Origin: an uncultured Verrucomicrobia subdivision 3 bacterium
GTDB lineage: Bacteria > Verrucomicrobiota > Verrucomicrobiia > Limisphaerales > UBA11358
Length of the DNA: 62,507 bases
Assembly (NCBI GenBank): GCA_903888765.1
Contig: CAISVF010000322.1
Coordinates: 1 to 62,507 of the forward strand
Direction of reading: 5' to 3'
Part shown: one piece after another, positions 1 through 15,220 of the stretch
Numbering within the stretch: position 1 is the first letter of the stretch
How the letters are laid out: each line of letters starts with the position of its first letter
Notes under the pieces: model-generated
What the model saw: only the letters and a program-made list of their open reading frames with translations
Databases searched by the model: none
Told to the model about the DNA's origin: nothing
Made by a program: the position numbers and the translations under genes

Positions 1-527
1 ATTTTGCTGAAGACGATTATTTATATCTGCCGGGCTCGCTAGAGCGTGGAGTTGCGTTTCTGCGGCGGCATGCGGAGGCGGATTTTCTGACGCTTTACGA
101 TCATTCAGATAACCACACAAAATTCATTCATCGAATTAAAGGTGCTGAATTTCAAGAAGATGGACATCGGTGGCATACCATCACCTCCACCTGCCTGACT
201 TTTCTAGCGCGTAAGAAATCTCTGGCTGAAACGGTTAATGTTTTTCAGACGTATGGACAGAAAAATTCAGACCTCGGCCTTTGGTTGGCGCTAACCAAAG
301 TTCGCGTCTTGAATCCATGGTCGTTTGTTCGCAGCTTGGGCGACGGAATGTTTTTTGCGGCCTCGCATGTTTTGGCCTGGCGACATGCGTGGCGACAATT
401 ACTATTTGGCAAACGGCGGACCCTCTGGGTCGCAACGCCATCGTTAGCAACACACATGGAAATTTCCGGTTTGGCACCAGGGGTGGACTGGGAAAAACTT
501 TTTAAGCCGACAGCAAAACCTGAATAA
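1..527 (+). CDS. Glycosyltransferase family 2-like protein, 5'-partial
   Basis: The frame is open from position 3 (FAEDDYLYLPG..., with an EDD DxD-like motif) and continuous with ORF 285..527. It sits among polysaccharide genes. Confidence 0.65.
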   Translation, partial: FAEDDYLYLPGSLERGVAFLRRHAEADFLTLYDHSDNHTKFIHRIKGAEFQEDGHRWHTITSTCLTFLARKKSLAETVNVFQTYGQKNSDLGLWLALTKVRVLNPWSFVRSLGDGMFFAASHVLAWRHAWRQLLFGKRRTLWVATPSLATHMEISGLAPGVDWEKLFKPTAKPE

Positions 528-545
528 TTCGATTTTTGAAGCTTC

Positions 546-1355
546 ATGAACCCGCCTAACCATAACGACTACGCCAGTTATCCCGAATCCTCCTTGCGTG
601 ACCGAATCAAGCTTGCCTACGATTGGATTCCTCCCGGCAGTATGAGGATTATGGATGGAGGCTGTGCCTTTGGCTATGGGACAAAGCATTTCCAGAAGGG
701 GAATGCCAAGGTGTGGGGCGTGGATCCGAATGCAGAATTTATCGCCATCGCGAGGAAGCGGTATCCGGGCCTCACCTTTGAAGTTTGCGGCGTTGAGCAA
801 ACCCTGTTCGCAGCGGAATATTTCGACGTGGTTATTCTCAACGATGTGCTGGAACATGTGATTGACGAGCGCAAGACCTTGAACGAGATGTTCCGCATCT
901 TAAGTCCGGGTGGCACATTCATCATCACCACGCCGCACCGGGGACTGTTTGCCTTCATGGATCCGGACAACTACACCTATCATTTGCGAACAAAAGCCCC
1001 CAGATTATACCGTTTTCTATTTCACGCCAAATATGGAAAACTGCCGCCCACGGATATTAAACCCGGCTATGATCAATTGCATCGGCACTATTCCTTAATT
1101 GATTTGAAACGGTTGCTGGAAGAATCAAATTTTAAGGGCAGATATGCCATGGAATCCGTTTTTCGCGGGGGGTTGTTCATGGGGGTGTTTGCCAGCAACT
1201 TTTTTGAACTGCTTTGCGTTCTTTTCAGTGTTAAAAGCGCAAGTCAATGGACCCGGTGGATGCAGTGGCTTGCTGATCGTGATTACTCTATTCCGTACGG
1301 TCCGCTGGCGTATAACATTGGAATACGCATTCGTAAGTTGCCATTGCCGAAGTAA
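546..1355 (+). CDS. Class I SAM-dependent methyltransferase
   Basis: Motif I MDGGCAFG, post-I GVD, FDVVILNDVLEH, and LSPGG. Confidence 0.85.
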   Translation: MNPPNHNDYASYPESSLRDRIKLAYDWIPPGSMRIMDGGCAFGYGTKHFQKGNAKVWGVDPNAEFIAIARKRYPGLTFEVCGVEQTLFAAEYFDVVILNDVLEHVIDERKTLNEMFRILSPGGTFIITTPHRGLFAFMDPDNYTYHLRTKAPRLYRFLFHAKYGKLPPTDIKPGYDQLHRHYSLIDLKRLLEESNFKGRYAMESVFRGGLFMGVFASNFFELLCVLFSVKSASQWTRWMQWLADRDYSIPYGPLAYNIGIRIRKLPLPK

Positions 1356-1418
1356 AGACCTTTAATCTTTAGCGTCGATTAAACGGCGGTGATTCCAGTC
1401 GGTAAAATGGTGCCGGGG

Positions 1419-2078
1419 TTAGCTGCCAATAGATTTTACGCATAGAATTGCCGCCGCATCTGCCGGATGGCGATTGCTCCATAGACACTGCCCCATCAGG
1501 GAAACAATTCCCCAAATAGCAGTGGGCCGGCGCTTTAGGGCATGATATTCACCGCGCAAACTTTTAGGTCCCAGCAGGCCCATGACGCGGTATCCCCGCT
1601 GTTCCATTTCTGAAGACTCCCAGCCGGAAAGATGTTCTTGCAAATCGTCATTGCTGGTATGGCGCTGCGGTAAAAAACCACTTGGAGTAAAAAAAACGAC
1701 CCTCTTTTTGGCGATTCGTTCCATGTCTGCTATCAGCTTTAGCCCATCCGGCTTCGTAAGATGTTCGATGACATCCAGCGCCACGCACGCATCAAATTGC
1801 TTTGGCTGAAATTGGCTGGAAAGGTCGCTCACATCACATTGAATCACCTGGTCATGAGTTTTTTGGCGCTTCGCCGCTTCCACTGAAGGAGCGTAACCGT
1901 CGGCTCCAACGGTGTGTGATATTCCCAACTGGCGCATGGTGTTCGACACCCCACAGCCTATGTCCAAAACATTTTCGCAATCCAGCAGGGCTTTGCGCAA
2001 AGCAAGTTTGACTAAAATACGGTTTGGATCATGCCCTTCCCGGATCAAGGCTGTCATTAGTTCAATTGGGCTTCTCAT
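1419..2078 (-). CDS. Class I SAM-dependent methyltransferase
   Basis: VLDIGCG and FDACVALDVIEHL motifs. Confidence 0.85.
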   Translation of the reverse strand: MRSPIELMTALIREGHDPNRILVKLALRKALLDCENVLDIGCGVSNTMRQLGISHTVGADGYAPSVEAAKRQKTHDQVIQCDVSDLSSQFQPKQFDACVALDVIEHLTKPDGLKLIADMERIAKKRVVFFTPSGFLPQRHTSNDDLQEHLSGWESSEMEQRGYRVMGLLGPKSLRGEYHALKRRPTAIWGIVSLMGQCLWSNRHPADAAAILCVKSIGS

Positions 2079-2109
2079 GGGTCGTAACTCAAATTACCGG
2101 ACGTGGCGG

Positions 2110-3126
2110 TCAGTTGGGTATTTCTAATTTGGCCCAGGACGCCGGCAGATTTTTTCTGACTTCAATTCCCTTGAACGCCTGCCCCTGCCGCGCACCCGTT
2201 TTTTTGGCCCAGACAGCCATTTGGTTTACCCCGGTCTCCAACGAAACATTTTTAATCAGGTCGCCGAAAACTTTATGGGCTTTTTCGTGGGCGGAGTAGG
2301 CGTGAACCACTTCATTACGGGCCTCCAGATGGTTGATCTGCGGCGGCACTCCCATCGCCTTCGCGACCACCTTGGCCAACTCGGCTACCGAATAGGGCTG
2401 GTCTGCCCCCACGTTGAATACCTGGTTGTAACTGGCTGGCCGTTCAATGCTGGCGGCGATGACTGGAGCCACATCGTCAATGTAACTAAAGGCCCGAGTT
2501 TGCGTGCCGTCGCCAAAAATCGTCATCGGCTGCCCCTGCATGATCTGGTTCATGAAAATCCCAATGACATTCCGGTAACGATCTCCCAGATTCTGGTTGG
2601 CGCCATAAACGTTATGCGGACGGAAAATGACATGATTTAGCCCGAATATCTCGTGGGCTTCTTTGAGATCAAGCTCTACGGCGTATTTGGCAATGCCGTA
2701 GGGGTCTTCGGGTTGCGGGACGGTGTCTTCGGTCATCGGAAGCTGATTGCGGCCATACACGGCAATCGACGAAGTGAAGACAAAGCATTTAACCGTGCCG
2801 GTATTGACAGCGGCGTTGATCAGGTTGACGCTGCCTAGGAGATTATTCGTGTAATTAAACCGTTTGATGAAATGGCTCAGGCCTTCCGCCGCATAGGCGG
2901 CCAGATGAAAAACATATTCAAAGCGGTGCTCGGCAAAAAGTCGATTGACCAGGTCAACATCGTTGATGGAACCCCGGACAAACTCTACGCCCGCCGGTAC
3001 ATGATCCTCAAAACCTCCGCTTAGATCATCCAAAGCGACAACCCGCATTCCTCGCTTCAACAAATGCGAGGCCACATGCGAGCCAATGAAACCCGCAGCA
3101 CCAGTTACCAAAACTCGTGAATTCAT
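2110..3126 (-). CDS. NAD-dependent epimerase/dehydratase (UDP-glucose 4-epimerase-like extended SDR)
   Basis: TGAAGFIG Rossmann motif, YGIAK (YxxxK), FTSS, NVYG and GDGTQTRAFSY. Confidence 0.9.
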   Translation of the reverse strand: MNSRVLVTGAAGFIGSHVASHLLKRGMRVVALDDLSGGFEDHVPAGVEFVRGSINDVDLVNRLFAEHRFEYVFHLAAYAAEGLSHFIKRFNYTNNLLGSVNLINAAVNTGTVKCFVFTSSIAVYGRNQLPMTEDTVPQPEDPYGIAKYAVELDLKEAHEIFGLNHVIFRPHNVYGANQNLGDRYRNVIGIFMNQIMQGQPMTIFGDGTQTRAFSYIDDVAPVIAASIERPASYNQVFNVGADQPYSVAELAKVVAKAMGVPPQINHLEARNEVVHAYSAHEKAHKVFGDLIKNVSLETGVNQMAVWAKKTGARQGQAFKGIEVRKNLPASWAKLEIPN

Positions 3127-3245
3127 AGAGCAATTCTAGCGGGGTTCGAGCCGCCATGTCGAGATTTGAAAAGATTCAGCAACGGTCTGCGTGCCCCTCT
3201 GGCTCAGGGTGCGCTGCCTGATAAAATATTCGTCTAAATGAAGCT

Positions 3246-3320
3246 TGGTAGCGCGCACGGGAATCGAACCCGTCTTTCAGCCTTGAGAGGGCCGTGTCCT
3301 AACCGATAGACGAGCACGCC
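3246..3320 (-). tRNA. tRNA-Glu(CTC)
   Basis: Minus strand reads GGCGUGCUCGUCUAUCGGUUAGGACACGGCC-CUCUCAA-GGCUGAAAGACGGGUUCGAUUCCCGUGCGCGCUACCA, a full cloverleaf with encoded CCA. Confidence 0.95.
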
Positions 3321-3419
3321 ACGAATGGAAATCCTATCTGGCGCAGCCACGATGTCAATGCGCAGGTGGTCAATGAGCAAACAAAATAATTTTTTATGAT
3401 CCTTTAGATTACTTGGTGA

Positions 3420-4445
3420 ACCTTGGTCTGTGAACTCCGGCCCACGTTCATACGCCACCGCATCTTCCTCGGGTTCGCCGTCGCCTTGGCAGCCACCTTC
3501 ACCCGCTGCGGTCTGCGCGTCGTCATCAGCCTCTTACGCACCTTGGGCTTGCGCCAGGCCAACTATGATCGGCTGCTGGACTTTTTCCACAGCTGGTCCT
3601 GAACCAAGCTGCGCACACACGGCTCTGGATCGCACTCATGTTTAAATCTCTGCTACCTTTCCTGCTGATTGTCAAAAGACATATCGCCCTATTGGCCGAT
3701 GGCATCAAAGCTGCCAAAACAGGAAAAGAGATGCTCGGCGTCAAAAAGCTGTATCGGGAGTCCCAGAACAACTCCAAGTCCGAATTCATCTTCGGCCATT
3801 CCGGTCAGGCTATCGCCGTCGTTGTCAAGGTGGCTGACGCCTATTTATTGTTGGCCGGATTTATTCTGCCTTTGCTCCAATCCGACCACCAGCTTGTCAC
3901 CTCTCCCAAATCCAACACCGTTGCCTATGCGGCCCCGGAAAAAACCAATGCCGACGCAGGAGCCGACCAAGGTGCTACGGTCCCAAAGTGAAGCTCAAAC
4001 ACTTGTTCGAGGATGAAAGTCGGTTTGTGTCCACCGCCAGCCCCATATATGGCGAGCGCAACGTCACGCTCCGCTACCAAGTGCGGGATCTTTTGCGGAA
4101 ATCGTTTGGCCTTCGGGTTCGATTCATCCTCGTCATCCATCCGCTGCGGGGCGTAAAATACTGCTTTGCACCGATCTGGCTTTCTCGGCGCTCCAGATTA
4201 TTTAACTCTACGGTGTGCGCTTCAAAATTGAAGTGGCCTTCAAGCAAGCCGTCCACACCATTGGAACCTATAGGTATCAACTCTGGATGCAAGCCGCGAA
4301 ACCACGGCCTTGCCGTTCCGGCGACCAGTATCTGCACAGGGAGTCCCACCTGTATCGGGATCAGCTCCGCCGCAAACTCGCCGCCTATCATTGTCACATG
4401 CAACTGGGCATCATCGCCCAAGGCCAGCTCCAGTGCCTGCCCAGC
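3420..4445 (+). pseudogene. Degraded IS701-like DDE transposase (fragments in several frames)
   Basis: Fragments DGIKAAKTGKEMLGVKKLYRESQNNSKSEFIFGHS, VADAY, RFILVIHP and RFKIEVAFKQAVHTIG...YQLWM resemble IS701/IS4-type transposases. They are broken by frameshifts and deletions. Boundaries are approximate. Confidence 0.65.
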
Positions 4446-9501: not shown

Positions 9502-11013
9502 TCACGCCGCCCCTTTCAAACTGTCGTCCGAATCCTTGATCACAAACCGGGCGCGCAGGCGCGCCACTTCGCTGGCCAGGCCGGCGAGCCGCACAGACTT
9601 CAACACTTCGTTGAAATCCTTGTAAGCCGCCGGCGCTTCATCCTTCGGATACGTGCGGCAGTTCGTCAAAATGTCGTGTACCACAAATTCATCGTCCACC
9701 GTCTTCTGATCCAAATCCCGAATCGCCGCCTTGCGCCCCTTCGCGCGGCCCGCACCATGGTTAACGCTGTAACAGCTTTTGTCCGCGCCCGGGTCAGCAA
9801 CCATCACGCAGGAACCCGCCGTCGGATTGCCGGGCAACAGAATCGGATGACCGGTCTCGTAAAACGGCGTGTTTTTGAGCGCGAAGTGATTCGCCGGGAA
9901 GGCACGGGTGGCACCCTTGCGATGCACCCAGGCTTCCTGATTGTTCACGATTTCGCGGCGGGCAATGTTGTGGCTGATGCAATACACGAGCTGGCCGCGC
10001 GTGCCGGGAATGATTTCCTGGAACGCTTCGAGCACGAGCTGGTTGATGAGCAGGTGGTTCACGGTCGCGAAGTTCGCGCCGAGCGACATGTCGTCAATAT
10101 AATCATCCGCCTCCTGCGTGCCGAGCGGCGCGTAAACCAACTCGCGGTCGTTGCCCGGCAACGGAATGTTCCAGGTCGCAAATTTGTTCTGCAACGCCTG
10201 GAACTGACCTTGGGCCAACGCGTAACCAAAGCCGCGCGAACCGCAGTGTGATAAAAATGCCACACACCCATCGCGCAAACCGAAGACCTCAGCCGCGCGC
10301 CGAGCGCGGTCGTTATCGGCAATCTGCACGGCTTCGCATTCACCAAAATGATTGCCACCGCCATAAGAACCAAGCTGGCGAATTTTGTCCTCAAACTTCG
10401 GGAATTTGCCGGTGCGGATGAGCAAGTCGAGCCGCGCGGCAAGATCGTCGCGCTGATTGCTGTGGCCGACGTGGAACGCGTCTTCGCAATGCGCCGCCCA
10501 CTCCGGCGGAATGCCAAGGTCTTGGCAGACGGCCACAGAGGCTCCTTCAATCGCCACACGGCGGCCGACCTCGCCATTCACGTTGCGACCTTTCTTTACA
10601 TTGCGCTGACCTTTGCCGGCTCCGGTCGGAGTACGTTCGACGATGGCGTTGATGAGTGCGCGGCGAACAGTTTTGTCCGCCACCGCGTCCGCCGGCACAT
10701 CAAGCTGGAGCAAGCTCATGGAGCATTTGATGTCCACGCCGACGGGGCCGGGATAAATGTGTGTCGGCGAAACGAGCACGCAGCCGACGGGTGCGCCGTA
10801 GCCGCAATGCGCGTCAGGATTGAGCACGAGGTCGGTAACGCCCGGCGCACCGCGCGAATTGAGGGCCTGCTCGATGCACTTCGCATCAAACGTCTCGCGG
10901 ATGGCGGCGGTGCCGATCACCGTGATCGGCTTGCCCTGATGGCCCGGCGCGGGAATGAAGCCGGTGGCTTCGCCCGTGGGCTGGATCACCGGCACTGCGG
11001 TTTCTGTGTTCAT
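9502..11013 (-). CDS. rtcB: RNA-splicing/repair ligase RtcB
   Basis: PDAH, GVDIKC, LGSYGGGNHF, HCGSRGFG, SHN, HRKGATRAF, HGAGR and DEAPAAYK. The start is ATG 11013 (MNTETAV), because the longer ORF overlaps an ncRNA. Confidence 0.95.
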   Translation of the reverse strand: MNTETAVPVIQPTGEATGFIPAPGHQGKPITVIGTAAIRETFDAKCIEQALNSRGAPGVTDLVLNPDAHCGYGAPVGCVLVSPTHIYPGPVGVDIKCSMSLLQLDVPADAVADKTVRRALINAIVERTPTGAGKGQRNVKKGRNVNGEVGRRVAIEGASVAVCQDLGIPPEWAAHCEDAFHVGHSNQRDDLAARLDLLIRTGKFPKFEDKIRQLGSYGGGNHFGECEAVQIADNDRARRAAEVFGLRDGCVAFLSHCGSRGFGYALAQGQFQALQNKFATWNIPLPGNDRELVYAPLGTQEADDYIDDMSLGANFATVNHLLINQLVLEAFQEIIPGTRGQLVYCISHNIARREIVNNQEAWVHRKGATRAFPANHFALKNTPFYETGHPILLPGNPTAGSCVMVADPGADKSCYSVNHGAGRAKGRKAAIRDLDQKTVDDEFVVHDILTNCRTYPKDEAPAAYKDFNEVLKSVRLAGLASEVARLRARFVIKDSDDSLKGAA

Positions 11014-11037
11014 AGTTTTATTCTTTTGTCCAAGTGA

Positions 11038-11152
11038 CGGCGCGACAAGTTTTTGCCGAAACAATCGCTCTACCACTGAGCTACGGCCCCGACTGATGGA
11101 GCCGGCGAGATTCGAACTCGCGACAGATGTAGTTCCAACGGCATTCGCACCG
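11038..11152 (-). ncRNA. Y RNA cassette Y6 (YrlA-like tRNA mimic)
   Basis: Terminal stem CGGUGCGA/UCGCGCCG, GCGAAUGCC and UUGUCG motifs. Cargo is T-arm GCGAG-UUCGAAU-CUCGC, closed acceptor CGGCUCC/GGGGCCG and D-arm GCUC-AGUGGUA-GAGC, in permuted order. Confidence 0.85.
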
Positions 11153-11183
11153 AAATCATTTAACTGCGTTAACCAACTAAATA

Positions 11184-11315
11184 CGCGACGACAAAAATTG
11201 GAGAAACATTTTCCGCTGCTCTACCAACTGAGCTACCCCAACCTTCTTGCGGTCGGAGGCTGGATTCGAACCAGCGACCATCGGCTTCATGTAGTTTGCT
11301 CCGGCATTCGTCGCG
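11184..11315 (-). ncRNA. Y RNA cassette Y5 (YrlA-like tRNA mimic)
   Basis: Terminal stem CGCGACGA/UCGUCGCG. Cargo is T-arm GCUGG-UUCGAAU-CCAGC, acceptor CUCCGACC/GGUUGGGG and D-arm GCUC-AGUUGGUA-GAGC. Confidence 0.85.
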
Positions 11316-11321
11316 AAAAAC

Positions 11322-11454
11322 TGTGACGACAAAATTTGATGAAACTGATAACGCGCTCTACCCCTGAGCTACGACCCCATGTGTTGGAGTCGGCAGGACT
11401 CGAACCCGCGACCTCGTCCTTATGAGGGATGTAGTTCCATCGGCATTCGTCACA
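11322..11454 (-). ncRNA. Y RNA cassette Y4 (permuted complete tRNA mimic with CAU anticodon loop)
   Basis: Terminal stem UGUGACGA/UCGUCACA. Cargo is UCC-CUCAUAA-GGACG-AGGUC, T-arm, acceptor CGACUCC/GGGGUCG, D-arm, then GCG. Confidence 0.85.
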
Positions 11455-11468
11455 AATTCTGACTGCAA

Positions 11469-11571
11469 TATGGCGACAAGGATTGATGAGAATTCTCAAC
11501 CGGCCTTGCAGCGGGTCGGGCGGAATTCGAATCCGCTGGTTGCCAATGTAATCTCCCCTGCATTCGCCATA
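11469..11571 (-). ncRNA. Y RNA cassette Y3 (T-arm plus hairpin only)
   Basis: Terminal stem UAUGGCGA/UCGCCAUA, GCGAAUGC..UUACAU, and GCGGA-UUCGAAU-UCCGC. No D-arm is present. Confidence 0.75.
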
Positions 11572-11583
11572 AAATTTCAAAGA

Positions 11584-11712
11584 AGCAGCGCGACAATCGG
11601 GTGCAAGACAGTATTGAGCTATTCCGCTTGCGCGGAACCGGGAAACGAACCCGGACGCTCTGGCGTTGGGCCAGTTGCTCTACCATGTAGTCCTGCGGGC
11701 ATTCCCGCCGCT
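11584..11712 (-). ncRNA. Y RNA cassette Y2 (tRNA mimic opened in the D-loop)
   Basis: Terminal stem AGCGGCG/CGCUGCU and inner stem GCAGGAC/GUCUUGC. Cargo is UGGUAGAGC, CUGG/CCAG arm, CCGGG-UUCGUUU-CCCGG, UUCCGC-GCAA-GCGGAA, then UAGCUCAA. Confidence 0.75.
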
Positions 11713-11745
11713 CCAAATTTCTGAAAAATCAATTCCGCTTTCAGA

Positions 11746-11811
11746 GCGGGCCGACAAGTTGTTGCCGAGACAGAACAGGTTAAATGTAGTCTCAAGCGGC
11801 ATTCGGCCCGC
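11746..11811 (-). ncRNA. Y RNA cassette Y1 (minimal 66-nt Ro-binding scaffold, no tRNA domain)
   Basis: GCGGGCCGAAUGCC...UUGAGAC-UACAU...GUCUCGG...UUGUCGGCCCGC carries the same motifs as the other five cassettes. Confidence 0.75.
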
Positions 11812-11831
11812 AAAAAATGGTTTCCACCCCG

Positions 11832-11863
11832 GCCCGGCCACGTCCGGATTGACGTGACCGGGC
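11832..11863 (-). other. 13-bp GC-rich stem-loop immediately after the rsr stop codon
   Basis: GCCCGGUCACGUC-AAUCCG-GACGUGGCCGGGC with no U-tail. It may be an mRNA-stabilising or processing hairpin. Confidence 0.6.
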
Positions 11864-11874
11864 TATTCCTTGGC

Positions 11875-13428
11875 TCACAATGCGAGCGACTCAATCGTTC
11901 CCACCCAGTGATCGGCACCCAACCGGCCTTCAGCGAAGGCGGCGATGACTTGAAACACCTGGTCGGAAAAACCGCCAATGTTCAAGATATCCTCGCGTTC
12001 CAACGCCTGCACCGTCGCGTAAGGCTGGATATCAATACACACCAACCGCGCCTGCGGATTGAACCGTTTAAACACCGACCATTGGCGCATCGTCTCAGTG
12101 CCGCGGCCACCCTTGGCATCCACCCACGACTGGTTGTCGGAGACGAACACCACCAAGTCGCCCTTGGCCTGCTTTTGGTTCAGCCACGCAAGCGGCGCAC
12201 TGCAGTTCGTGCCACCGCCGCCCACGGCGGCGAGCTTCTGGGCGTTGGTCATCACACTATCGCGGCTGTTCAACGACACGTTCACGACGTTATTCTCGAA
12301 GGGCACCACTTCGGCCTGCGGATTCTGGCGCAAGATGGACGCCGCCACCAAGGCCGCCACATCCACACATCGCACCGACGTGGTCGCGCCGGCTCGCTGG
12401 CCCGTCACGGCCGAACCCATCGAACCCGACACATCCGGGCAGACATACACCTTGCCCGCGATGCGCGGAATGTTCTCCGTCGCGACTTCCATCGCGTCCT
12501 GGAGCGCGTCCCGAATCAAGTTCGGCACATCGCCACCGGCCGCTTTGAACGCCATCAACAACTGATACGGAAACACGCGAGCGCGTTTCACCGCGTCGGC
12601 ACTCGCCAGGCGGTTGGCGATCAATTTCACCATGACCTCGTTGTCGAACACGCCGTGCCGAGCAAACGTGTTCAAGTTCATGCGCGTCATCTGCCACGGA
12701 GCTTTCTTCGCGATCGCCGTCCACTCGGCTTTGCCGAGATCCAAGGCGGTCAACATCTGGAAAGCCACGTCCGGCACTTCATCCCGCTGGCCGCCCTTGA
12801 AGGCTTCGAACTGCTTCACGATTCCGGGCAGCGCCGCGGCATTATGTTTCCGACCAAGCAAATAACCGTAGAACGCGTCCCGGGTCGCATTGCCGGGTTT
12901 CGGGTGAACCATCTTGACGAGGTCCGCCAAAGACGGAGCATTGCCCACCGACACTCGGAACAACTGTTCATCCGTGCGGGATTCGAGCCAGCGCTGGACC
13001 AATTTCTTTGGCACCGTGCCGAGTGATTTGCGGCCCACCACACCGGAACGCAACACCTGGACGAAATTGCGGAGCATCTTGCCGTCATCGATCACCCGGT
13101 CGAACACGGTGCGGAGCAATGGCGGATCTTTCACCGACAACGCCGCGCACAATAAGGCCGGCATATCCTTCATGAAACCCTTCTCACGGGCATACACGGC
13201 GGTCTTGGCGACGAACTGCGCGTCCACTTCCTTCGTCAAGGTGAGCACCTTTTGGAGCTGGTCCTCGGCGGAGGCATAATAGGTCGAGTTCAAACAGCCG
13301 GTCGCCGCGTATTGGGCGAGCGCCTGCTTCGGCGCGAGCGTGTAAGCCCGGCCACCCGCTTCGTTGATGGCATCGGTCTGCGGCAAGAGCGCCCCGCGCA
13401 AGGATTGGAATAATGATTGGTTAGCCAT
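11875..13428 (-). CDS. rsr: Ro60-related TROVE-domain RNA-binding protein
   Basis: NEAGGRAY start, TROVE helical region (GFMKDMPALL, RMNLNTF, VFPYQL) and a C-terminal vWA domain with MIDAS DVSGSM, GGGTNC and VSDNQSW. Confidence 0.93.
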   Translation of the reverse strand: MANQSLFQSLRGALLPQTDAINEAGGRAYTLAPKQALAQYAATGCLNSTYYASAEDQLQKVLTLTKEVDAQFVAKTAVYAREKGFMKDMPALLCAALSVKDPPLLRTVFDRVIDDGKMLRNFVQVLRSGVVGRKSLGTVPKKLVQRWLESRTDEQLFRVSVGNAPSLADLVKMVHPKPGNATRDAFYGYLLGRKHNAAALPGIVKQFEAFKGGQRDEVPDVAFQMLTALDLGKAEWTAIAKKAPWQMTRMNLNTFARHGVFDNEVMVKLIANRLASADAVKRARVFPYQLLMAFKAAGGDVPNLIRDALQDAMEVATENIPRIAGKVYVCPDVSGSMGSAVTGQRAGATTSVRCVDVAALVAASILRQNPQAEVVPFENNVVNVSLNSRDSVMTNAQKLAAVGGGGTNCSAPLAWLNQKQAKGDLVVFVSDNQSWVDAKGGRGTETMRQWSVFKRFNPQARLVCIDIQPYATVQALEREDILNIGGFSDQVFQVIAAFAEGRLGADHWVGTIESLAL

Positions 13429-13463: not shown

Positions 13464-13480
13464 AGCAGCCACCGTGCCAA
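13464..13480 (-). promoter_or_regulatory. Sigma54 (-24/-12) promoter of the rsr-Y RNA-rtcB operon
   Basis: Minus strand TTGGCACGGTGGCTGCT has GG-N10-GC spacing, ~35 nt upstream of the rsr ATG and next to a divergent enhancer-binding protein. Confidence 0.85.
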
Positions 13481-13612: not shown

Positions 13613-15220
13613 ATGACAGCCAGGAAACAGGTGGTGATCGGTCTGCTCGGCAGTGTGCTGGATTACGGCTTTCACCAGGAACGCTGGCATAAGTGGCGCC
13701 CGAGCGTTTCTTTGTGCAAACACGCGGACCTGCCGATTGACCGGTTTGAACTCATTTACGATCCCAAGTTCAAAGACATGGCCAACGTGGTCATGGCGGA
13801 TATTTCCACCGTCTCGCCGGGAACCGAAGTCCGCGGCACCACCCAACCATTGCGTGATCCTTGGGATTTCGAGGAAGTGTATGCCGCGCTGCATGACTTT
13901 GTGCGTGGCTACGAATTCAAGCCGGACACAGAAGATTACCTCGTCCACATCACCACTGGTTCGCATGTGCAGCAGATTTGCCTATTCCTGCTGACCGAGT
14001 CGCGTCATTTTCCGGCGCGCCTGTTGCAAAGCTCGCCGGCGGATGCCAAACGGCGCGGACCTGAAGGGAAGTTCGCCATCATCGATCTCGACCTCTCCAA
14101 ATATGACCGGCTGGCCTCACGATTCGGCAAGGAGCTAAAGGAGGCGCGGACGTTCCTCAAGTCGGGCATTGCCACGCGTAACGAACATTTCAATCAGCTT
14201 ATCGAGCAGATTGAGCATGTCTCAATCAATGCGAAAGATCCTGTCTTGCTGACCGGACCTACGGGCGCGGGAAAGTCGCAGCTCGCCCGGCGCATCTACG
14301 AACTGAAAAAATCACGGCACCAGATCGCGGGAGCATTTGTGGAGGTGAACTGCGCCACGCTGCGCGGCGACTCGGCCATGTCGGCACTCTTCGGCCACGT
14401 CAAAGGGGCGTTCACTGGGGCGGTAAAAGATCGGCCCGGCCTGTTGCGTGCCGCTGACGGGGGCTTGCTTTTCCTGGACGAAATCGGCGAGCTGGGACTG
14501 GACGAACAGGCGATGCTTCTCCGGGCGCTGGAAGAAAAACGCTTTTTGCCTTTCGGTGGCGACTGCGAGGTCACCAGCAATTTTCAATTGATTGCCGGCA
14601 CGAATCGCGATCTGCAACGCGCCGTCCAGGAAGGCCGCTTTCGCGAAGACCTGCTGGCCCGGACCAACCTCTGGACATTTCATCTGCCGGGCTTGCGCCA
14701 ACGTCCGGAGGACATCGAACCCAATCTGGATTACGAGCTGGAACAATTCGCGCGCAAGAGCAGCCAGCGCGTCACCATGAGCAAGGAGGTGCGCGAAGCT
14801 TTTTTGAAATTTGCCCGATCACCGGCGGCAAAATGGACCGCGAATTTTCGTGACTTGAACGCGTGTATTACCCGCATGGCCACGCTGGCACCCGGCGGTC
14901 GCATTACCGCACCCGTCTTGGATGGTGAAATGCAACGCTTGAAGACCGCCTGGACCACGCCGATGGCAAACGATGACCACGGCACCGTGCTTTCTGAAGT
15001 TCTCAGTGACGCAGCGAAAGATCAACTCGACCTATTCGATCAGGCGCAACTGGCTTTCGTCATTCGCGTGTGCCACGAATCCACGACTCTTTCCGACGCC
15101 GGTCGCAAACTCTTCGCCGCCACCCGGGAAAATCGAAAAACCGCCAACGATGCCGATAGGCTTCGCAAATACCTCGCCCGTTTTGACCTCGGTTGGCAGG
15201 ATATAAAATTAAAAAACTAG
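13613..15220 (+). CDS. rtcR: Sigma54-dependent RNA-repair transcriptional activator RtcR
   Basis: N-terminal RtcR/CARF domain (WRPSVSLC, DPWDFEEVY, HITTGSHVQQIC), Walker A GPTGAGKS, GAFTGA, LFLDEIGE and C-terminal NDADRLRKYLARF. Confidence 0.95.
   Translation: MTARKQVVIGLLGSVLDYGFHQERWHKWRPSVSLCKHADLPIDRFELIYDPKFKDMANVVMADISTVSPGTEVRGTTQPLRDPWDFEEVYAALHDFVRGYEFKPDTEDYLVHITTGSHVQQICLFLLTESRHFPARLLQSSPADAKRRGPEGKFAIIDLDLSKYDRLASRFGKELKEARTFLKSGIATRNEHFNQLIEQIEHVSINAKDPVLLTGPTGAGKSQLARRIYELKKSRHQIAGAFVEVNCATLRGDSAMSALFGHVKGAFTGAVKDRPGLLRAADGGLLFLDEIGELGLDEQAMLLRALEEKRFLPFGGDCEVTSNFQLIAGTNRDLQRAVQEGRFREDLLARTNLWTFHLPGLRQRPEDIEPNLDYELEQFARKSSQRVTMSKEVREAFLKFARSPAAKWTANFRDLNACITRMATLAPGGRITAPVLDGEMQRLKTAWTTPMANDDHGTVLSEVLSDAAKDQLDLFDQAQLAFVIRVCHESTTLSDAGRKLFAATRENRKTANDADRLRKYLARFDLGWQDIKLKN

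Follow-up and report, generated by a model that had tools for sequence, protein, structure and literature searches.

The spacer between rsr and rtcB in an uncultured Verrucomicrobia subdivision 3 bacterium (assembly GCA_903888765.1) holds six consecutive Y RNA units, here termed Y1 to Y6. The stretch of DNA analyzed, called the window below, comprises the 62,507 nucleotides (nt) of contig CAISVF010000322.1, and the array lies on its minus strand at positions 11,038 to 11,811. The rsr-yrlBA-rtcBA system is known and multi-unit arrays are usual; the array in the window is an upper-range example with one new variant. Judged from sequence, the features that appear to reach beyond the published accounts examined are an array of this size with diverse units in a set order, the gain and loss of individual cassettes among close relatives, and a D-loop-opened tRNA design typified by Y2. 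We consider it likely that six RNAs that bind the Ro60 ortholog Rsr are made from the operon transcript. Bacterial Y RNAs have so far been studied as one or two per species; here and in related loci, an rsr gene commonly comes with three to seven different ones.

The anatomy, genomic context, conservation, and covariation of the array could be observed directly. The spacer contains exactly six copies each of GAATGC, TACAT, and TTGTCG, which always follow one another in this order, and the composite of the three has six minus-strand matches there and none elsewhere on either strand of the window. Units Y1 to Y6 measure 66, 132, 104, 133, 133, and 114 nt, respectively, and are separated by five linkers of 6 to 31 nt with an A+T content of 62% to 83%. 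Single-sequence folds close a terminal stem in every unit. In an alignment of four paralogs and three orthologs, all of the outer five pairs of this stem (columns 2 to 6) have changed on both sides. All six units are on the rsr strand, 63 to 840 nt downstream from rsr, and thus within the 4-kb, same-strand range that applies to YrlA RNAs. An earlier note, made from the letters of this DNA alone, had described six minus-strand units of 66 to 133 nt at these positions, terminal stems that diverge in sequence yet still pair, invariant GAAUGC, UACAU, and UUGUCG elements, short linkers, and a constant scaffold with varying cargo; this description held up. A home-made scanner for a loose stem-plus-motif pattern gave 13 to 19 matches per strand across the window and was dropped because it was too permissive. 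Covariance models were used instead. The first of these, R1, was built from Y3 to Y6 and three orthologs from another member of the genus (G001), and all five of its matches at E ≤ 0.01 in the window's own genome fall within the rsr-rtcB spacer.

The most novel part of the array is Y2 (11,583 to 11,714, minus strand), which joins the scaffold to a tRNA body opened in the D loop. Following UACAU, the RNA runs through GGUAGAGC, a 6-bp hairpin resembling an anticodon arm, a short variable stretch, a T arm, a 6-bp acceptor-like hairpin capped by GCAA, and finally UAGCUCA. Its GAGC pairs with GCUC and closes a three-way junction, such that the elements follow one another as the 3' half of the D arm, the hairpin, the T arm, the acceptor, and the 5' half of the D arm. 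An alifold consensus of nine orthologs contains 39 pairs, 12 of them with compensatory changes. Among the aligned cells, 98.9% can pair, compared with 35.6% to 47.4% when the partners are slid, and four of five measures are reached by none of 500 shuffles (the fifth is reached by one). The loop of the anticodon-arm-like hairpin varies among copies in both length and sequence.

The same design was also encountered outside the Verrucomicrobiota. A second covariance model, R2, built from the nine Y2 orthologs, scores these at 135 to 158 bits and, in nine additional loci, recovers a single unit apiece at 45 to 59 bits. By their record labels, these loci belong to Heliomicrobium (L049, L077, L085), Acidobacteriota including Blastocatellales (L078, L094, L098), Prosthecobacter (L060), and Myxococcales (L026, L027). 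Seven of the nine fold alone as UACAU-GGUAGAGC-hairpin-AGGUC-T arm-capped acceptor-UAGCUCA. The Prosthecobacter copy, cut by a contig end, stops before the closing strand, and the two myxobacterial copies have no acceptor hairpin. In a cross-phylum alignment of 11 sequences of this type, 22 of 34 pairs show compensatory changes.

The places in Y2 that correspond to tRNA positions 15 and 48 also covary. They are A:U in the window and in L023 and G:C in the other seven Verrucomicrobiota copies, all nine of which fit the expected pairing. Six copies from other phyla keep the D stem, and five of these fit as well (G:C in four, A:U in L098), the sixth being G:U (L094). An alternation of G15:C48 with A15:U48 was described for YrlA RNAs by Chen et al. 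(2014; PMC4201824). In Y4 to Y6, the 15:48 pair was read by eye from single-sequence folds.

The terminal stem of Y2 has a peculiarity of its own. The C of the CGAA motif is replaced by G, and the opposite base on the 3' strand is usually a purine: the site is G.G in seven of nine orthologs, G.A in G001, and G-C in L076. The canonical C is seen in the Y2 of L024 only, where it pairs with G. Eight of nine copies therefore retain two mismatched purines at this site.

No description of the Y2 architecture was found among the papers examined. The designs described in these are YrlA, which presents the T arm, the acceptor, and the D arm in this order, and Yrn1 of Deinococcus radiodurans, in which the T and D elements have the opposite orientation (PMC4201824). 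In the drawing of Yrn1, a T arm is present and the D and T elements flank a stem-loop like an anticodon arm, which is also the order at the 5' side of Y2; a full D arm is absent, and the position of its anticodon arm is contrasted with that of the acceptor stem in YrlA. Compared with Yrn1 by description alone, Y2 differs in its closed D stem, its capped acceptor hairpin, and its YrlA-type handle. Y2 appears to be a new design that goes beyond the published ones examined, in that its closed D stem and capped acceptor occur together with a T arm and an anticodon-arm-like hairpin. The Y2 type, which permutes the tRNA fold circularly in a second way, can help to establish which side of the tRNA shape is important.

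The remaining units range from a bare scaffold to complete YrlA-type modules. Y1 (11,746 to 11,811, minus strand) consists of 66 nt of scaffold only, a YrlB-like design that scores 34.4 bits with R1. Its match to the Rfam YrlB model (RF02565) is at chance level (17 bits, E = 3.2, against a cut-off of 97 bits), and YrlB orthologs are reported to be confined to Salmonella enterica serovars (Chen et al. 2014; PMC4201824). Y1 would thus be YrlB-like in its working while standing outside the YrlB model. Y3 (11,468 to 11,571, minus strand) adds a mini-hairpin, a T arm, and one more hairpin to the scaffold, lacks a D arm, and scores 94.3 bits with R1. Y4 (11,322 to 11,454, minus strand) is of the YrlA type, with a T arm, a capped 8-bp acceptor, a D arm, and an extra short hairpin 5' of the variable loop AGGUC and the T stem, at the site of a stem-loop that Chen et al. 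named "V" (PMC4201824). Y5 (11,183 to 11,315, minus strand) is likewise of the YrlA type; its variable region spans 13 nt and its acceptor hairpin 8 bp. Y6 (11,038 to 11,151, minus strand) is a canonical YrlA. The YrlA order of a T arm, a loop-capped acceptor-like stem, and a D arm is found in Y4, Y5, and Y6 and is missing from Y1 (no domain), Y3 (no D arm), and Y2 (another order).

Folds and ortholog alignments agree with the cargo that the earlier note had assigned to Y1, Y2, Y3, Y5, and Y6. Its reading of Y4 as a complete tRNA with an anticodon did not survive, and a role for Y4 as a tRNA-Met mimic was rejected with it. The loop of the extra hairpin reads CUCAUAA in the window and UUAAAGA (five), UUAAACA (one), or UUGAAAU (one) in the seven orthologs, so the CAU "anticodon" occurs in one of eight copies and is an unconserved feature. 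The spacer yields no tRNA gene with ARAGORN, which looks for a standard cloverleaf with an anticodon. Y4 is instead a YrlA-type module with a short added hairpin.

Compensatory changes among orthologs were found in every unit. In addition to the 12 of 39 pairs in Y2, they affect 10 of 16 pairs in Y1-type first units (15 sequences), 5 of 26 in Y3 (nine sequences), 6 of 39 in Y4 (eight sequences, the loop of the extra hairpin being unconserved), 6 of 35 in Y5 (10 sequences), and 7 of 35 in Y6 (nine sequences). The Y1-type sequences, which may be orthologs or analogs, carry the record labels Verrucomicrobiota, Thermodesulfobacteriota, Polyangiaceae, and Myxococcaceae; their observed values are matched by none of 500 shuffles on any of the five measures, and the slid controls are far lower. 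Because the aligned sequences are related, the results of the shuffles should not be read as probabilities. A stronger argument comes from the slid controls and from the many double changes in the acceptor-like hairpins. The presence of compensatory changes in the cargo helices implies that each cargo structure is under selection. Two cassette types also recur across phyla, namely the Y1 type as a first unit and the Y2 type.

Relatives of this Rsr place the array in context. The protein is 63% to 93% identical to proteins or loci labeled Verrucomicrobiota (including Pedosphaera), Pyrinomonadaceae, Blastocatellia, Myxococcales, Heliomicrobium, and others, and the sources name such proteins 60 kDa SS-A/Ro. 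At least 582 rsr loci were confirmed overall, and R1 was run on 80 loci from the Rsr alignment, where all 356 of 356 matches fall on the rsr strand. The census of units within 1.6 kb downstream from rsr was restricted to the 71 loci with at least 1300 nt of downstream sequence; the nine short-flank loci set aside include the three of the 80 without an R1 match, in which the flank is cut or short. Counts of one, two, three, four, five, six, and seven units were obtained in 3, 13, 30, 19, 1, 4, and 1 loci, respectively; since R1 was trained on sequences of this lineage, these counts are lower bounds. All four loci with six units belong to close relatives of the window, and the seven-unit locus (L063) is from a Blastocatellia metagenome-assembled genome (MAG). 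In 36 of the 71 loci the first unit is no longer than 85 nt. Arrays are therefore the rule for this type of rsr, and six units lie in the upper range. The earlier note had presented such a diversified array as apparently undescribed; with two to seven units downstream from this type of rsr in 68 of 71 loci, this claim of novelty is overstated.

R1 also gave 105 matches upstream of rsr in Acidobacteriota loci, mostly to model positions 36 to 95. These proved to be junctions between tandem tRNA genes and were excluded from the counts; Chen et al. warned of the same artefact (PMC4201824).

Among close relatives, both the order of the units and the loss of single cassettes can be followed. Loci L019 to L022 carry all six units in the same order, and their Y1 to Y6 orthologs are 81% to 92% identical to those of the window. 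Overall, orthologs of each unit are 77% to 92% identical and more alike than the paralogs of one array. Within the window's genus this type of rsr is sporadic, being present in 5 of the 101 genomes sampled, the window's own included. G041 carries six units and G107 and G090 five each, and G001 has Y1, Y2, Y3, Y5, and Y6 distributed over two contigs. The G001 assembly breaks inside the array, and Y2 is split between the end of one contig (G001:C58) and the start of another (G001:C272; loci L015 and L105). It is therefore likely that arrays of this kind are undercounted in fragmented MAGs.

The genes around the array are those of an RtcR-controlled rsr-rtcB operon, as the earlier note had held. 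The rsr gene (11,875 to 13,428, minus strand) codes for a Ro60 ortholog of 517 amino acids (Pfam vWA_Ro60, E = 1.1e-20; TROVE, E = 2.4e-08). Divergent from it is rtcR (13,613 to 15,220, plus strand), whose product matches the CARF-type RtcR family (PF06956, E = 2.1e-80) and the sigma-54 AAA+ domain (PF00158, E = 5.3e-49). A pattern search revealed a putative sigma-54-type promoter, TGGCAC-N5-CTGC, at 13,465 to 13,479 (minus strand), 36 nt upstream of the rsr start codon. This -24/-12-like site is a candidate promoter whose case rests on its position and its TGGCAC core, because the loose sigma-54 pattern is no rarer in the window than chance would have it (25 matches, with 19.7 expected) and only one match begins with TGGCAC. 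The genome contains rpoN.

At the other end of the array, rtcB (9,502 to 11,013, minus strand) encodes an RNA ligase (PF01139, E = 1.5e-97). Its probable start is the ATG at 11,013, 24 nt past Y6, the context of which is kept in G001. The mechanically called open reading frame (ORF), 9,502 to 11,076, begins at a GTG within Y6 and would overlap that unit. Within this longer ORF, the first residue covered by the Pfam RtcB match is residue 70, which suggests an N-terminal extension of about 50 residues.

Two hairpins follow the rsr stop codon (11,814 to 11,863, minus strand), the first of 13 bp and the second weak, rich in G-U pairs, and ending in UUUUUU. RNAfold gives the 63-nt rsr-Y1 spacer -31 kcal/mol with both hairpins formed together, and a terminator scan did not flag them. 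They could be a partial terminator, or else an element that acts on processing or stability and so determines how much rsr mRNA there is relative to the Y RNAs. Scans of the array interior found no sigma-70-like promoter and one weak terminator-like hairpin, fewer than in shuffles of the scanned region. A single transcript running from rsr through Y1 to Y6 into rtcB is the simplest reading.

The closest published counterpart is the rsr-yrlBA-rtcBA operon of Salmonella Typhimurium, which is under RtcR control (PMC7790460). As far as the published text describes it, the two share the order of RtcR regulator, rsr, Y RNAs, and rtcB, with these on the same strand, as well as a short Y RNA without a tRNA domain in first place and a tRNA-like YrlA in last place (PMC7790460, PMC4201824). 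Unlike that two-unit operon, the array in the window has six units and three extra cargo designs (Y2, Y3, and Y4). Mycobacterium smegmatis also has more than one Y RNA, there processed from a single precursor; its YrlB has a possible T arm only and thus resembles Y3, and its Y RNA genes lie upstream of rsr rather than downstream (PMC4201824). In D. radiodurans, Yrn1, Yrn2, and other small RNAs include several that adjoin rsr, again upstream (PMC4201824). Thermus phage phiLo carries, next to a Ro60 gene, two adjacent Y-RNA-like genes with a CGAA motif, Yrl1 and Yrl2, whose products have been shown to bind Ro60; they are phage-borne, lie upstream of Ro60, and are presented in the text of that report without mention of a tRNA-like domain (PMC12135203). 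In their survey, Chen et al. listed 355 putative YrlA RNAs from 254 bacteria and 22 phages and reported every copy within 4 kb (PMC4201824).

Public sequencing data gave only a hint of expression. These data consist of contigs, from which neither strand, ends, nor levels can be read and whose uncovered parts are uninformative. No sequencing run contained half of the sampled words, the best share being 0.10. Metatranscriptome contigs from four libraries in four studies, 90% to 97% like the window (threshold 88%), bridge neighboring units. They span Y6-Y5 (266 nt with 12 differences), Y5-Y4, Y4-Y3-Y2, Y2-Y1 to the end of rsr, and rtcB into Y6. As a weak hint, these contigs fit co-transcription of the array in relatives.

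In the mechanism that we propose, RtcR and sigma-54 would most likely drive one transcript, rsr-Y1..Y6-rtcB, from a single promoter. This precursor would be cut at the A/U-rich linkers and trimmed back to the terminal stems, giving RNAs that share a Ro-binding handle composed of a 7- to 10-bp terminal stem with 5' CGAAUGC and 3' UUGUCG, an inner stem, and UACAU. Because all six have the same handle, each RNA should load one Rsr ring. The variable middle could then serve as an effector module that decides the role of the ribonucleoprotein (RNP): none in Y1, a D-loop-opened tRNA in Y2, a T arm plus hairpin in Y3, and YrlA-type T-acceptor-D domains in Y4 to Y6. In this way Rsr would probably gain several RNP forms in the response to tRNA damage, a plain gate form and others that show a stable, anticodon-less tRNA shape to tRNA-binding proteins. 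We infer the sigma-54-driven transcription, the processing, the binding of Rsr, and all partner proteins.

Several observations weigh against this account. The published 5'-proximal Ro-binding motif GNCGAAN0-1G, which the earlier note had invoked, stands in its strict form in Y1, Y3, Y4, and Y5 and not in Y2 and Y6, where its position is occupied by GCGGGAAUG and UGCGAAUG, respectively; GAAUGC is present in all six. In a scan with the Rfam YrlA model (RF02553), only Y6, at 80.5 bits, exceeds the curated cut-off of 69 bits; full-model matches below it were obtained for Y4 (68.8 bits), Y5 (67.1 bits), and Y3 (38.5 bits, with the D arm deleted), Y2 gives a partial match of 17.5 bits, and Y1 gives none. 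Under E-value reporting, four units match at 8e-19 to 1.1e-06. Public models thus detect part of such arrays, here one unit in six at the Rfam cut-off.

The genomic context and the relatives raise further points of this kind. No match to rtcA (PF01137) was found in the genome, which is 92.9% complete, so that the absence is unproven; because rtcA was not found, the regulatory loop of Salmonella may transfer incompletely. The contigs from RNA libraries may represent DNA carry-over. Discrete transcripts, their ends, and their binding by Rsr are inferences here, as is the non-redundancy of the cassettes. Close relatives lose single cassettes (L023 has no Y3, L025 neither Y2 nor Y3, L076 neither Y3 nor Y4, and G001 no Y4), and individual units must therefore be dispensable.

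How far the cassettes differ in function is a separate matter. Since several phyla keep distinct cassette types, specialization is possible, the Y2 type being retained in Verrucomicrobiota, Heliomicrobium, and Acidobacteriota MAGs, and we propose only tentatively that the types are functionally specialized and non-redundant. The fuller form of this idea, to which we give limited credence, is that the Y RNAs of rsr operons form a modular set in a fixed order, in which a tRNA shape is grafted onto the Ro handle in three or more distinct ways, the Y2 type being one of these. Each cassette would recruit or block a different tRNA-handling protein during tRNA damage, and the gain or loss of cassettes would tune the response. 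If cassette types do bind different partners, the array offers an entry point to the role of Rsr and Y RNAs in the RNA-repair response that involves RtcB. The four-unit array of Brevifollis gellanilyticus NBRC 108608 (L093), a cultured carrier, makes the question of partners testable.

It is also possible, if somewhat doubtful, that the main purpose of these paralogous units is to provide Rsr with sufficient Y RNA, their differences in cargo being tolerated drift. A range of one to seven units among related loci is what a matter of dosage might produce, and the one or two cassettes missing from close relatives speak for redundancy. Drift is harder to reconcile with orthologs (77% to 92% identical) that are more alike than paralogs within one array, with compensatory changes that point to selection on each structure, or with the retention of the short Y1 type and the D-loop-opened Y2 type across phyla.

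The earlier note had suggested that the six cargoes form a repertoire of decoys or adaptors, each for a different tRNA-cleaving toxin or tRNA-binding enzyme. Distinct architectures are indeed preserved in orthologs and recur in other phyla, and the cassette set differs between close relatives, as that of a conflict-driven repertoire would. The decoy idea as such is already published for YrlA, whose tRNA-like domain, itself not cut by an anticodon nuclease, could competitively inhibit that nuclease (Hughes et al. 2020; PMC7790460). When Y2 to Y6 were compared by blastn with the 36 tRNAs that ARAGORN predicts in the genome (Y1, which has no tRNA-like part, was left out), the best matches were 17 to 22 nt of D arm, from Lys, Gly, Thr, Ala, and Val tRNAs, or 12 to 18 nt of T arm. 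No unit matched one tRNA across arms, and Y3 had no match. Mimicry of particular isoacceptors was rejected on these grounds, and six separate targets are unsupported.

The anticodon loop is the main feature that anticodon nucleases read. The anticodon-arm position is empty in four of the six units, and the loops present at Y4 and Y2 are, respectively, unconserved as a CAU and variable, which further argues against a repertoire of such decoys. We regard one cargo for each toxin or enzyme as rather unlikely. Generic competition for tRNA-binding proteins is compatible with the blastn result and is possible.

It is very improbable that the spacer works chiefly in cis. On this view it would influence processing and stability, uncouple the expression of rsr from that of rtcB, and yield no stable RNAs, and its place between two ORFs of one operon and the strong hairpins after the rsr stop codon would suit this. 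In Salmonella and M. smegmatis, however, homologous units are known to be stable RNAs bound by Rsr (PMC4201824), and arrays follow rsr in many loci in which tblastn found no rtcB in the rsr flank (63 of 80). Decay of a tRNA gene cluster into pseudo-tRNAs can be dismissed almost entirely, since despite the T arms, D arms, and acceptor-like stems and the real tRNA arrays beside rsr in some relatives, ARAGORN predicts none within the spacer, the arms stand in a permuted order, loops close the ends of the acceptors, and every unit bears a Ro-binding scaffold with a structure kept by compensatory change.

Some relatives carry tRNA genes close to rsr. In nine loci (L031, L035, L039, L044, L057, L066, L095, L097, and L088), a dense, same-strand array of 14 to 28 tRNA genes with a near-full set of anticodons lies directly upstream of rsr, within the 3.5-kb flank (about positions 1 to 3,430 of each locus). 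The first eight, from Pyrinomonadaceae and other Acidobacteriota MAGs, have three to four Y RNA units after rsr; L088 has almost no downstream flank. Long tRNA arrays have been tied to rtcB (PMC8421152). Among the papers listed in literature searches, none joins tRNA arrays with Ro60 or Rsr, and two papers on tRNA arrays, that one included, never mention Ro60, TROVE, or Rsr.

Two members of the window's genus possess another, longer Ro60 gene of 575 to 577 amino acids with a strong TROVE match (L016, G012:C284, 3,700 to 6,708; L017, G024:C219, 2,138 to 6,506). The gene sits within tRNA arrays, which in G012 amount to 19 tRNAs in 8.5 kb. It is preceded upstream by several Y-like units with the scaffold GGGCCGAAG..GGUUAUC..UUGUCC, together with a small ORF bearing a CPCGSG motif; a regular expression based on the motifs of the window missed both arrays because their scaffold differs. 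G024 also has an RtcB gene there and G012 an HTH_17 ORF, and the region may be a mobile island.

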